Source of the DNA: Escherichia coli | GTDB lineage: Bacteria; Pseudomonadota; Gammaproteobacteria; Enterobacterales; Enterobacteriaceae | DNA: 64,000 bases | Reading direction: 5' to 3' (one strand) | Assembly (NCBI RefSeq): GCF_041886205.1 | Contig: NZ_CP169029.1 | Shown: positions 40,949 through 44,541 of the stretch, piece after piece | How the letters are laid out: each line of letters starts with the position of its first letter | How positions within the stretch are numbered: the stretch's first letter is position 1 | Program-made: the position numbers and the translations under genes | The notes under the pieces: model-generated | What the model was told of the DNA's origin: nothing | Database searches by the model: none | Seen by the model: only the letters and a program-made list of their open reading frames with translations

Positions 40949-42199
40949 TTACATGTTCTTGATGATCGCATCACCAAATTCTGAACATTTCAGCAGTTTA
41001 GCGCCTTCCATCAGACGTTCGAAGTCATAGGTTACGGTCTTGGCGTTGATTGCGCCTTCCATACCTTTAACAATCAGGTCTGCGGCTTCAATCCAGCCCA
41101 TGTGGCGCAGCATCATCTCAGCAGAGAGGATGATAGAGCCAGGGTTTACTTTGTCCTGACCGGCATATTTCGGCGCAGTACCGTGGGTGGCTTCAAACAG
41201 GGCGCATTCGTCACCGATGTTTGCGCCAGGGGCGATACCAATACCACCAACCTGCGCTGCCAGGGCGTCAGAAATGTAGTCACCGTTCAGGTTCATACAG
41301 GCGATAACATCATATTCAGCCGGACGCAGCAGGATCTGTTGCAGGAACGCATCAGCGATCACGTCTTTAATGACGATCTCTTTGCCGGTATTCGGGTTTT
41401 TAACTTTCAGCCACGGGCCGCCGTCGATCAGTTCTCCGCCAAACTCTTCACGCGCCAGCTGGTAGCCCCAGTCTTTAAACGCGCCTTCGGTGAACTTCAT
41501 GATGTTGCCTTTGTGCACCAGGGTCACAGAGTCACGATCGTTAGCAATTGCGTATTCGATCGCTGCACGAACCAGACGTTTGGTGCCTTCTTCCGAACAC
41601 GGCTTAATACCGATACCGCAATGTTCCGGGAAGCGAATTTTCTTCACGCCCATCTCTTCACGCAGGAATTTAATCACTTTCTCGGCGTCGGCAGAGTCAG
41701 CTTTCCATTCGATACCCGCATAAATGTCTTCCGAGTTTTCACGGAAGATAACCATATCGGTCAGTTCAGGGTGTTTAACCGGGCTTGGAGTGCCCTGATA
41801 GTAACGTACCGGACGCAGGCAGATGTAGAGATCCAGTTCCTGACGCAGGGCAACGTTGAGAGAACGAATACCGCCACCAACCGGAGTGGTCAGCGGGCCT
41901 TTAATGGCAACGCGATATTCACGAATCAGATCAAGGGTTTCAGCAGGCAGCCAGACATCCTGACCATAAACCTGTGTGGATTTTTCACCGGTGTAAATTT
42001 CCATCCAGGAGATTTTACGCTCGCCTTTATAGGCTTTCTCGACTGCAGCGTCGACCACTTTCAGCATGGCTGGGGTTACATCTACACCGATTCCATCACC
42101 TTCAATGTAAGGGATAATCGGATTTTCAGGAACGTTGAGTTTGCCGTTTTGCAGGGTGATCTTCTTGCCTTGTGCCGGAACAACTACTTTACTTTCCAT
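40949..42199 (-). CDS. icd: NADP-dependent isocitrate dehydrogenase, 416 aa, full length
   Basis: Translation recognised throughout ([38 protein letters not shown]...). Confidence 0.97.
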
Positions 42200-42369
42200 T
42201 CACCTCTCCTTCGAGCGCTACTGGTTTGCTCGTCTGCCACCACGTTGCATATGCGTTTGCGTCCTGCGATACGGATGCTTTAGAGCAATTTTTGTTAATG
42301 ATTTGTAATTGGCTTGTCAATACTACCCTATTGTTTGCCGTCATGAAAGATGCGCGTTATTAGGCTATA

Positions 42370-42420
42370 ATGCGGCAATTCATAATCTGTGAAAATACCA
42401 TGCAAAAAACTTCTTTTAGA
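42370..42420 (+). pseudogene. rluE: Displaced 5' end of rluE (first 17 codons, MRQFIICENTMQKTSFR) separated from the rest of the gene by a 1.5-kb insertion
   Basis: In-frame continuity with the downstream rluE body across an 11-bp direct repeat; -10-like TATAAT at 42366-42371. Confidence 0.5.
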
Positions 42421-42659
42421 CCAAAGACAGTATTTTTCAGACCTTCAAATAAGGTATTAAATATCAATAATTTACACCAGATTTTAAGCAATAAAAAAAA
42501 CCACCAGAGATAACTAACAGGGTGCTATTTGGTCAAAATTTGACATTACTCGATTCAGCGACTAACTCACTTTGAGCACTATTGGGAAAATTATCAAAAG
42601 TCATGGTTGAAGCGACAAGCAACGAGTAAATTATGGCATCCACCCTTTTTGAGGTTCAC

Positions 42660-42752
42660 ATGAAACGCTTTGCACTGATAGCTGTGACACTCGTTGCCTT
42701 TACTGGTTCTAGTTCTGCATCTGCTGCAACCGAAGAAATCAACTTCAAGTAA
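42660..42752 (+). CDS. Micro-ORF, 30 aa, signal-peptide-like (MKRFALIAVTLVAFTGSSSASAATEEINFK); possibly a decayed N-terminus
   Basis: SD GAGG 5 nt upstream; same frame as the next gene but separated by two stop codons. Confidence 0.25.
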   Translation: MKRFALIAVTLVAFTGSSSASAATEEINFK

Positions 42753-42785
42753 CAGAAACACTATATAACAATGAAGTGTTGAAAA

Positions 42786-43235
42786 ATGGATACTACCGAA
42801 GAACGCAATGGAACATATTTCTACAGAGGACACCCGAACCTGTCCAAAATAGAACTACTCAACGTCATATTCCTTGAAGAATTCTGTAAGGAATTGGGGA
42901 TTGATTCGGTATCAGGTGCAGCAATCTTATCTGGTCAACCTTGGCTGGGTACAAGAGCGAAGCCGCAAGGGGCAACCCTGGGAACAAGTGTTGTCTCAAA
43001 GTATGCGCGTATACTGATGAGAGATGCACGCATGCCTTTTGGTATTTCTGTTCATACACCAGTGGGGGTAAGGATGCAGAAATCTAATAAGCTTGCTGCA
43101 ATTATCGCTCGTTGGGTCCCGTGGATTGGTTGGGCTTCACTGTCGATGAGTCTTTACAGGGTTTCGACTCGTACCCAGGAAAAATACAATCTGATTGCCA
43201 AACCTCAAGACCGTATTAAGTGGACTTCCTTCTAA
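42786..43235 (+). CDS. Hypothetical protein, 149 aa (gene A of inserted cassette); unrecognised family
   Basis: ORF track; AT-richer than flanking core; stop overlaps start of next gene (TAATG). Confidence 0.6.
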   Translation: MDTTEERNGTYFYRGHPNLSKIELLNVIFLEEFCKELGIDSVSGAAILSGQPWLGTRAKPQGATLGTSVVSKYARILMRDARMPFGISVHTPVGVRMQKSNKLAAIIARWVPWIGWASLSMSLYRVSTRTQEKYNLIAKPQDRIKWTSF

Positions 43236-43570
43236 TGGCGACAACAATCACAGACGAAGTTTTAGCACTGTTCCGTGATGAGATTCCAGGTTATCAGGAT
43301 GACCACGGGAAGGAAATTCCGTTAGAACTGGACTCTGATTTGTTCGACTATCCACGAGATGATATAGAGGACGCTATACGGAAATACAAAGAGAGGTTTG
43401 GGATTAACCTGGATAATCTGGACTGGTCTTTGTACCTTCCGTGGGAGTCTGCACCATTGCTTCAACGATGGTTCAAGCTCAAGCGGGAAGAGGTAGAAAC
43501 AACACGTTTACCGTTAACTGTACGGATGTTTGCAGAATCAGCAGAAGCGGGAAAATGGCTGTATCAGTAG
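43235..43570 (+). CDS. Hypothetical acidic protein, 111 aa (gene B of inserted cassette), translationally coupled to gene A
   Basis: ATG overlaps gene A stop (TAATG); track ORF starts at upstream GTG 43220; hairpin terminator-like sequence immediately downstream (about 43575-43600). Confidence 0.6.
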   Translation: MATTITDEVLALFRDEIPGYQDDHGKEIPLELDSDLFDYPRDDIEDAIRKYKERFGINLDNLDWSLYLPWESAPLLQRWFKLKREEVETTRLPLTVRMFAESAEAGKWLYQ

Positions 43571-43902
43571 AATAAAAAAGAAGGCTGCGATGCCCTTCTT
43601 ATTACTGCTGATGATGGTAGTGGTAAAGCATCATCCTGAACTTGAACAGTGAAGTGCTGTCACCCATCAGTAATACAGAAACACTATTTTTCATACCAGT
43701 ATTTATTCAATTCATCAATGTAAAATGTGTTCATTGGGCCATATTTATCACCATGCAGCCACACAACCGCTGCTCACTAACCCAGGTATTGATGAAACCG
43801 CGCTGAAGAGCCTGAACCCTGAACCTCTAATGAGTACCTTCAAAGTCCAATGCAATCCGACACTGTGCTACCCTCTGCGTATAGCTCTATTTGGAATTTA
43901 CT

Positions 43903-44541
43903 ATGAAATACTTTAGCGATTCTAAATCTTCTTTTAGAAAAAAACAGGTTAGTCGACTAAACTCGCAACACTCCACTAAGCGTAAACCTGAAAACCAGCC
44001 CACGCGGGTGATCCTGTTCAATAAACCCTACGATGTTCTTCCGCAGTTCACCGATGAAGCCGGACGCAAAACATTAAAAGAATTCATCCCGGTTCAGGGC
44101 GTTTATGCAGCAGGTCGTCTTGACCGCGATAGCGAAGGGTTACTGGTGCTGACCAATAACGGCGCGTTGCAGGCGCGTTTAACCCAGCCGGGTAAACGCA
44201 CCGGAAAAATCTATTATGTGCAGGTGGAAGGTATTCCCACACAAGACGCACTTGAAGCCTTGCGCAATGGCGTAACCTTAAATGATGGCCCTACCCTGCC
44301 CGCAGGCGCGGAGCTGGTTGACGAACCCGCGTGGTTATGGCCGCGGAATCCACCAATTCGTGAACGCAAAAGTATTCCCACCAGCTGGCTAAAGATCACC
44401 TTATATGAAGGACGTAATCGCCAGGTGCGCCGCATGACCGCCCATGTTGGTTTCCCCACGCTGCGACTGATTCGCTATGCGATGGGTGATTACTCTTTGG
44501 ATAATCTTGCCAATGGCGAATGGCGAGAAGCGACAGATTAA
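43903..44541 (+). CDS. rluE: 23S rRNA pseudouridine(2457) synthase RluE with a substituted N-terminus (212 aa from ATG 43903; alternative TTG 43891)
   Basis: Body of the protein recognised ([27 protein letters not shown]...[17 protein letters not shown]); N-terminal 13 residues come from insert DNA. Confidence 0.75.

Follow-up and report, generated by a model that had tools for sequence, protein, structure and literature searches.

What kind of event placed about 1.5 kb of DNA within the 5' end of rluE, a pseudouridine synthase gene, and how did this gene come by the new start codon that now lies beyond the insert? The locus belongs to a 64-kb stretch of an Escherichia coli chromosome (contig NZ_CP169029.1), called the window here at its full length, where icd (minus strand, 40949-42199) precedes the plus-strand genes rluE, nudJ and mnmA. 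A first-pass annotation, made from the letters alone, had proposed that a cassette flanked by 11-bp direct repeats interrupts rluE and that the insert supplies a replacement start, and these proposals are borne out: a 17-codon rluE stub is followed by 1,507 bp and by rluE restarting at ATG 43903, with the junction mapped by alignment, and the 11-mer CTTCTTTTAGA occurs at 42410-42420 and at 43928-43938 and nowhere else in the 64 kb, where shuffled sequences give 0.01 copies. Joining the two halves over one repeat yields 217 codons, the same as the annotated rluE of strain HS-02, which has the joined sequence, and PGAP places the rluE start at ATG 43903. The evidence presented below leads us to regard the insert as very probably the fossil of a small integrative island that was mobilised by a large serine recombinase (LSR) with its chromosomal attachment site, attB, at the rluE 5' end.

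The open reading frame (ORF) at 42370-42513 begins with the 17 rluE codons and then runs into unrelated, AT-richer DNA. The interval between the repeats (42421-43927) has a G+C content of 31-48%, against 50-55% in the flanks. At the second repeat, with TTG (43891) and ATG (43903) in frame ahead of it, the reading frame of rluE is taken up again. In an alignment with uninterrupted rluE the left junction coincides exactly with the end of the first 11-mer. The repeats had been taken as the boundaries of the insert, and this holds on the left but not on the right, where non-native DNA continues for 43 nt past the second repeat (43939-43981). A pair of 11-mers within 1.9 kb is not improbable by itself; its weight comes from the match to independently mapped junctions and from its recurrence in every related element. 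The PGAP annotation was taken from NZ_AP045833.1, a genome that is 100% identical to the window over window positions 42200-44100 and differs from it elsewhere; distant features were for this reason verified on the window's own sequence. The features of the locus are as follows (attP, site of the element; attL and attR, left and right junctions).

42343-42371, plus strand: native rluE promoter-like site (-35 ATGAAA, -10 TATAAT), from a consensus scan with 10/12 matches.
42370-42420, plus strand: displaced native rluE 5' stub of 17 codons, MRQFIICENTMQKTSFR, in a frame open to 42513, from alignment.
42410-42420, unstranded: attL core C-TT-CTTTTAGA, with the probable crossover TT at 42411-42412, placed by dyad symmetry.
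42421-42764, plus strand: left-end backbone of the island, with 76-87% nucleotide identity to the left ends of L027, L031, L035 and L038.
42752-42764, plus strand: first copy of a 13-bp direct repeat, ACAGAAACACTAT, forming in-frame QKHY codons of a secreted-protein gene.
42786-43235, plus strand: STM2901-family/DUF8209 protein of 149 aa (NF045926, 156 bits).
43235-43570, plus strand: DUF1493 protein of 111 aa (PF07377, E = 1e-29).
43581-43596, unstranded: G+C-rich hairpin past the gene pair, terminator-like mainly on the minus strand, from the sequence.
43675-43687, plus strand: second copy of ACAGAAACACTAT, from a repeat search.
43767-43863, minus strand: pseudogene remnant of an LSR 5' end, from tblastn and a hidden Markov model (HMM).
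43903-43927, plus strand: P arm of the former attP (AAATACT-N8-TCTAAATC), serving as the replacement rluE start (M-K-Y-F-S-D-S-K-S), from comparison with relatives.
43928-43938, unstranded: attR core C-TT-CTTTTAGA, from comparison with relatives.
43939-43981, plus strand: diverged 43-nt patch in the rluE N-terminal tail, replacing NHQVKRFSSQRSTRR, from alignment.
43903-44541, plus strand: rluE as now encoded, 212 aa with an intact catalytic domain (NF008487, 470 bits), from the PGAP start.

The first-pass annotation had found no integrase in the insert, and this has to be corrected, as the pseudogenised 5' end of a recombinase gene is still present at 43767-43863. Read on the minus strand from 43863, it gives (GTG)SDCIGL*RYSLEVQGSGSS, a frameshift and then QRGFINTWVSEQR, about 32 codons in all, and it carries an in-frame stop, the frameshift and a Ser>Leu exchange in the conserved YxRxSS motif. 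Intact recombinases of related islands start M-C-V-A-I-G-Y-M-R-Y-S-S-K-L-Q-G-G-G-S-T...Q-K-S-L-I-N-K-W-V-E-D-Q-K, and the tblastn matches of the remnant are collinear with LSR residues 5-20 and 24-36. A search of the window, translated in six frames into 3,158 fragments, with an HMM of five LSR N-termini ranked the two pieces of the remnant first and second, adjacent and collinear. Weaker collinear LSR similarity may extend to about 43700. The remnant DNA is 79.5% identical to the remnant of the gut metagenome locus L031 (L and P numbers are handles for loci and proteins), and its start lies 39 nt from the rluE ATG, the same distance as in L033, L035 and L044. No tyrosine recombinase (Phage_integrase) was found in the insert or in the related rluE islands, those seen nearby belonging to prophages across icd.

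The left end of the insert tells a similar story of loss. Its backbone consists of the P' arm of the attachment site (CCAAAGACAGTATTTTT), a leader and the beginning, ~30 codons long, of a gene for a small secreted protein (ATG 42660), and its identity to the left ends listed above holds over the aligned parts. The secreted-protein gene is intact in L035/L036 (116-125 aa; MKRFSLMALVLLASSASAATEGINFKYQKHY...) and is cut in the window by TAC>TAA at 42750-42752; homology to the L035 backbone stops at the first copy of ACAGAAACACTAT. The two copies of this 13-bp repeat, at 42752 and 43675 (~22 bp if imperfect matches are allowed), bracket the two genes of the insert, which suggests either that the gene pair was inserted into the secreted-protein gene or that fragments of two paralogues were left.

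Full-length window RluE was used as the query for donors and revealed Citrobacter variants with related replacement N-termini; a short N-terminal RluE peptide as query returned fragments only. The following proteins carry such replacements.

P0199 (Citrobacter): N-terminus MSNARKYSSDSKTSFR; tail after SFR Citrobacter-native.
P0201 (Citrobacter-like host): N-terminus MSNARKYYNDSKTSFR; tail after SFR Citrobacter-native.
P0200 (metagenome contig L031): N-terminus MRYYNDSKSSFR; tail after SFR Citrobacter-type.

The loci behind these and further matches form a series from intact islands to remnants. L033 encodes an intact protein of 555 aa that has Resolvase and Recombinase domains; its gene is divergent to the rebuilt rluE and begins 39 nt from the rluE ATG. 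The LSRs P0312, P0313, P0314 and P0317 are 94, 70, 65 and 48% identical to this protein, respectively. All five LSR lineages examined lie between icd and rluE, ~39 nt from and divergent to the rebuilt rluE start. The intact recombinases have 555-579 aa, those of L033, L035, L038, L041 and L044 carry PF00239 and PF07508, with or without PF13408, and Zn_ribbon_recom is on record for P0312 and P0314. Hosts of the LSR islands are Enterobacter cancerogenus (L035/L036), draft E. coli (L038-L040), other enterobacterial metagenome contigs (L041-L045) and Citrobacter-like bacteria, so that the question raised in the first-pass annotation, whether a larger, integrase-bearing element occupies this site elsewhere, is answered by islands with an intact LSR in Citrobacter, Enterobacter, E. 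coli drafts and metagenomes. These islands range from 6 to >11 kb and their cargo is variable. Among the genes of the E. coli island (L038-L040) are a candidate for defence recognised by PADLOC (PDC-S64), one for a small serine recombinase and several ORFs with no family assignment, and another of the islands, of >11 kb, contains a TMP_3-domain protein and a DUF4145 protein. A scan of IMG/VR with the LSR gave no matches, and the nearest phage LSR is only 26% identical.

Locus L027 (Citrobacter CP056421.1) represents an intermediate stage. Here icd and the same stub are followed by a left flank with 79% identity to window 42200-42682, and beyond it come two small ORFs, IS110, 66 recombinase codons and the rebuilt rluE, the LSR codons being 91% identical, truncated and followed by sequence derived from an insertion sequence (IS). 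L031 has the order icd, stub, small ORF, hcp, DUF8209 gene, DUF1493 gene, short recombinase remnant and rluE. Taken together, the pieces of the remnant and the L027 intermediate appear to make the assignment of the insert to a decayed LSR island secure enough.

The attachment sites show how the junctions arose. In attL the rluE stub ends ...AAC-TT-CTTTTAGA and is followed by ...ATAGTATTTT; across all elements attL has the layout ...ATG(C/A)A(A/G)AAAAC-TT-CTTTTAGA-N2-AA(A/T)(G/C)A(T/C)AGTATTTT... and attR the layout ...AAATACT-N8/9-TCTAA(A/G)(A/T)C-TT-CTTTTAGA-host rluE. The reconstructed attP is dyad-symmetric, its arms AAATACT / AGTATTT and TCTAAA / TTTAGA being mutually inverted, and in L038 the joined element arms give AAATACTATTATGCA-GTCTAAAAC-TT-CTTTTAGAC-AAATGATAGTATTT. 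From AAATAC to the central TT there are 16 nt in both arms of attP, and by inspection AAATACC lies 11 nt from it in the left arm of attB; a 5-bp offset of attP versus attB half-sites is expected for LSRs from the crystallography of serine-integrase half-sites. Identity between attB and attP around the core covers 11 nt in the window and up to 15 nt in L027 and L038, and the core recurs together with homologous element arms in the window and in the related elements. The 11-mer is thus the stretch of attB/attP identity around the crossover and not a target-site duplication, and the K-Y-x-x-D-S-K shared by the new N-termini results from translation of the attP arm. Attachment sites of LSRs are short, of ~40-50 bp, and excision needs a separate directionality factor (PMC12286644).

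The same anatomy bears on two other origins. Direct repeats at both ends of a compact insert would also be left by a transposon or IS with an 11-bp target-site duplication, but the insert has neither terminal inverted repeats nor a transposase, its repeats are in-frame homologous gene sequence, and the repeat length varies from 11 to 15 nt across elements; this origin has next to no probability. Alternatively, a foreign gene pair together with an rluE 5' end might have been imported by illegitimate or homology-facilitated recombination through 11 bp of microhomology, with no site-specific recombinase taking part, as would suit a window with no intact integrase and a foreign tract that reaches 43981, past the second repeat, and replaces 43 native nt. 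Against such an import, the same junction, core and arms are found in independent islands with intact LSRs from several genera, both flanks of the insert are homologous to LSR islands, and the recombinase remnant stands at the expected place, which makes it very improbable.

Integration by an LSR would proceed as follows. The enzyme would pair attP (AAATACT-N8/9-TCTAAAxC-TT-CTTTTAGA-N8-AGTATTT) with the rluE attB (...AAATACC-ATG-CAAAAAAC-TT-CTTTTAGA...), and strands would be exchanged in the shared core, probably at the central TT, as far as the anatomy of the att sites indicates. The native promoter and the first 17 annotated codons would thereby be stranded at attL, facing the island, and the left arm of attP would be fused in frame to the remaining rluE and provide its new start, both of which are the arrangements seen in the sequence. 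Comparison with relatives shows that decay has brought the island down to 1.5 kb, the recombinase to ~32 broken codons and the secreted-protein gene to a truncated copy. Now that it lacks a recombinase, the insert is immobile. It is inherited vertically, homologous recombination in its flanks carries it from one Escherichia lineage to another, and it is occasionally deleted between the short att-derived repeats. The first-pass annotation had suggested a site-specific element that regenerates its target, either as a decayed islet or as a cassette moved by an unrecognised mechanism; the related LSR islands and the remnants bear out the decayed islet.

A search for empty sites, as had been recommended, shows that rluE is continuous in ~5,050 of 5,426 complete E. 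coli genomes, and the 1,507-bp interior is present in 374 of them at 98-100% identity. In every locus inspected the insert occupies the rluE site, and nearly all listed matches are annotated as STM2901 family / DUF1493 family / rluE. All native RluE proteins retrieved from Salmonella, Citrobacter, Kluyvera and Enterobacter have the stub-type N-terminus running on unbroken, ENTMQKTSFR being kept in native E. coli, Salmonella and Citrobacter RluE and differing by 1-2 residues in the Kluyvera and Enterobacter types. Because the native N-termini of other genera are uninterrupted, the insert is the derived state. The left flank of the insert in the window is near-identical to that of K-12-like strains, HS-02, TR01 and 042, with one T-run indel and one substitution. 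Comparison of the flanks with phage and plasmid collections returned E. coli chromosomal fragments only, and two records considered as mobile carriers, the "phage" ON470584.1 (100% match) and the "plasmid" CP088590.1, were dismissed, both being host chromosome. ON470584.1 (Escherichia phage vB_EcoM-689R6) runs through an icd-site prophage integrase, icd, the rluE insert, rluE, nudJ, mnmA and hflD and includes ~6 kb of host chromosome; CP088590.1 (L020) is a 175-kb E. coli chromosomal piece with bluF-icd-rluE-purB, and CP125156.1 (L007), also labelled a plasmid, is chromosomal, a 5.37-Mb Klebsiella replicon. IS insertions were also seen in the insert: an IS3-family element lies in the toxin gene (the STM2901-family gene, see below) of IAI39 (L022) and of L020, the gene being split in the former and truncated in the latter, and in strain 100117 (L023) an IS3-family element lies between the DUF1493 gene and rluE.

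The insert can also be lost. The patch that follows the second repeat is strictly linked to it: 376 genomes are >=95% identical to the window over 43928-44010 and all others are <90%, and the two genomes in excess of the carriers, HS-02 (L003) and O157:H7 TR01 (L004), lack the insert and keep the patch. In HS-02 rluE is an exact join across the 11-mer, and TR01 reads CTTCTTTTAGA-CC-AAAAACAGG, in which the CC of the attL P' arm is kept; because of this CC after the left repeat, TR01 represents a deletion with the crossover a few bases further right. The two junctions indicate that the repeats are recombinogenic and that the loss in TR01 did not occur at the position of a site-specific enzyme. 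The deletions in HS-02 and TR01 arose independently, each at its own point within an imperfect repeat (18/21), and TR01 is the only O157:H7 record seen with the patch allele. Such deletions would be the one argument for regarding the occupied arrangement as ancestral and the K-12-type gene as its deletion product, but the deletion products keep the patch, and in one case a base pair of attL, and so are unlike the common allele. With RluE unbroken in the four other genera as well, this reading deserves hardly any credence.

The patch itself (43939-43981) has 13 differences from the K-12 and 042 allele, and both of its flanks are otherwise near-identical. It contains an imperfect palindrome centred on GTCGAC (43946-43963). 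It breaks the motif (N/K)H.V(K/E)RFS, which is conserved in the native RluE retrieved. Host sequence is unaltered on either side of the insertion in L027, L031, L033, L035, L038 and L044; in the window the left side is native and the right side carries the 43 diverged nt next to the core. An improved accessibility of the start codon was considered as an effect of the patch and found no support (0.48 with and 0.55 without it). Import from an unsampled host and divergence in situ are both possible sources of the patch.

A variant of LSR integration would account for the patch by placing the event in another Escherichia-like host that had the patch tail, from which the integrated and perhaps already decayed insert reached E. 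coli by homologous recombination. In an exchange by a serine recombinase the DNA to the right of the attR core is the host's, and the patch would then be the tail of the previous host. Transfer between lineages is directly seen in Escherichia sp. E1V33 (L008) and in the host of L026. In E1V33 the insert has the same junctions and is 95-98% identical; the cassette genes of E1V33 have a synonymous difference (pS) of 0.04 from the window, yet its rluE body differs by 9.5% (90.5% identity), the divergence beginning within ~8 nt of the patch end. The L026 host has the insert and window-type rluE for ~165 nt, followed by the rluE of a different species; its metagenome contig L026 also has an extra 312-aa ORF without Pfam match between rluE and nudJ (7473-8411). 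Because these right-hand end points differ, transfer by homologous recombination is indicated. However, no native RluE retrieved has the patch tail, all of them keeping (N/K)H.V(K/E)RFS, the codons just past the patch (KPENQPTRV) are of E. coli type, and in both E. coli and E1V33 this account needs a right crossover no more than a few bases from the patch end. A previous host is less likely than not; as a variant of the general account, it concerns only the way in which this lineage came by the insert.

The cargo left in the insert is a gene pair in which the stop of the STM2901-family gene overlaps the start of the DUF1493 gene (TAATG), and PF26636 (DUF8209) is on record for an orthologue of the 42786-43235 protein. 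In every locus examined the DUF1493 gene lies immediately downstream of the STM2901 gene. The 12 loci of the pair in other genera are at various chromosomal places, none adjoining rluE, and hcp lies directly upstream of the pair in 10 of the 12, as it also does in L031. A search of 1.8 billion representative proteins found the STM2901/DUF8209 domain at the C-terminus of long proteins, where it follows Rhs/YD core-end motifs, for example ...YDPxxGRxxxxDP...NDPxNxxDPDGL (P0074, P0165, P0179); a glycine-rich linker precedes the domain, which is the C-terminal tip of these and further metagenome proteins. Its arrangement suggests that STM2901/DUF8209 is a putative, widespread polymorphic-toxin domain and that the DUF1493 protein is a candidate cognate immunity protein. 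Most likely the pair is an effector and immunity couple of a type VI secretion system (T6SS), kept for interbacterial competition or self-protection, as its gene context suggests.

The toxin-domain gene is under purifying selection between genera, with a ratio of nonsynonymous to synonymous differences (pN/pS) of 0.12-0.35, and the window and strain Ecol_545, which represent two divergent E. coli lineages, have identical STM2901 proteins. Between the window and L031 the toxin is 48% and the partner 33% identical, with backbones at 78-80%, and similarity to the spacer between hcp and the toxin gene in L031 is confined to ~20 nt ahead of the toxin ATG. The searchable literature contains no experimental link of STM2901 or DUF1493 to T6SS and describes no role for either. 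PADLOC gave no match to the gene pair, and a role in anti-phage defence was dropped on this account.

As to rluE itself, the pseudouridine synthase should be made despite the insert. The crystallised construct (PDB 2oml) lacks the first 28 residues of RluE, and as the change is confined to the N-terminal tail, it should not affect the catalytic domain. The -10 hexamer TATAAT (42366-42371) overlaps the annotated ATG 42370, and for this reason the native start is probably ATG 42400 (MQKTSFR); a start of this type is used in many Citrobacter annotations. The native promoter, now aimed into the island, may drive the toxin/immunity pair. An Rfam search of the region returned nothing relevant.

Several observations weigh against the account of a fossil LSR island carrying a T6SS couple. 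The recombinase remnant is short and each of its pieces is marginal alone (E = 0.11 and 0.22 versus the 64-kb window). An intact LSR is present in 0 of 5,426 complete E. coli genomes, and activity in E. coli is indicated by draft and metagenome contigs only. The central TT is probably the exchange point, but this and the half-site motifs derive from symmetry only. Integration into a K-12-like attB does not predict the 43-nt patch, which none of the other elements has. With regard to the cargo, tblastn found no remnant of hcp in the insert, and an AlphaFold model of the toxin (predicted local distance difference test, pLDDT, 77) had no fold match in the PDB, with nothing below E 0.4.

Elsewhere in the window, two regions were noted that lie apart from the insert. 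Between cvrA and dadX (5614-7801) there is a gene for a 322-aa leucine-rich-repeat (LRR) protein that resembles SlrP/SspH2-type effectors in their LRR part, with an IS3-family transposase gene after it; at this place the near-identical genome NZ_AP045833.1 encodes an LRR protein of 478 aa and lacks the IS. Autotransporter adhesins (BafA / Ag43 / AIDA-like) are encoded, whole or as fragments, at 24561-28106 and 29324-30820, of which the latter looks like the C-terminal barrel part only and has a counterpart annotated as frameshifted in NZ_AP045833.1.

As a fossil the window copy is nothing unusual; what makes it of interest is the family behind it. The findings point to rluE as a dedicated attachment site of a serine-recombinase island family in Enterobacteriaceae, they account for an insert that is annotated only as STM2901/DUF1493 in ~7% of complete E. 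coli genomes and for the altered RluE N-terminus, and they tie the STM2901/DUF8209 and DUF1493 families to polymorphic-toxin systems. They also present an att arm that is constrained twice, as a protein-binding site and as coding sequence. The rluE attB is present and unoccupied in E. coli K-12 and would be so in most Enterobacteriaceae; if active, the rluE LSRs could serve for marker-free integration at a site that laboratory E. coli has by nature, and candidate triplets of recombinase, attP and attB are at hand for the native K-12 sequence. The rluE site is absent from the list of E. coli defence hotspots that was checked, and the searchable part of the literature does not mention rluE as an attachment site or an rluE LSR clade. 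LSR islands in housekeeping genes are known, as are islands that rebuild gene 5' ends. That there is in addition an undescribed LSR clade dedicated to the ~40-bp rluE 5' site, with an attP arm evolved to encode the start, which shuttles toxin- or defence-like mini-islands that fossilise, is a proposal for which we see the chances as even.

LSR integration systems include SCCmec, with CcrAB acting in rlmH/orfX, and the phage integrases of phiC31, Bxb1, A118 (comK) and SPbeta (spsM). The rluE islands resemble known LSR elements in the Resolvase and Recombinase domains of the enzyme, in short dyad att sites, in a recombinase gene that abuts attP, and in entry at a defined point of a housekeeping gene with no long target duplication, rlmH being likewise an rRNA-modification gene. 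They differ in that the 5' end of rluE is the target and that the attP arm encodes the replacement start and N-terminus, as well as in their size of 6 to >11 kb and their defence-like or T6SS cargo, and the window copy has lost its recombinase. The islands specific to dusA, one of which, in Vibrio, is the subject of a preprint (10.1101/2021.06.18.448947), use tyrosine integrases. Like the rluE islands they enter an RNA-modification gene at its 5' end, which they replace together with the promoter, so that the gene stays functional, but the recombinase is of the tyrosine and not the serine type, and the target gene and the att architecture are others. Prophages of the e14/phage-21 type in icd (the ycgX-icdA hotspot) also regenerate a gene end and leave a displaced gene fragment; they are, however, full prophages that enter icd at its 3' end by means of a tyrosine integrase, and they have no relationship to the rluE element. 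Lastly, the gene pair of the insert resembles Hcp-linked T6SS islets and Rhs C-terminal polymorphic toxins in combining a small toxin-domain gene with an overlapping partner gene, and it differs from the Hcp-linked islets in that the window insert is without hcp.

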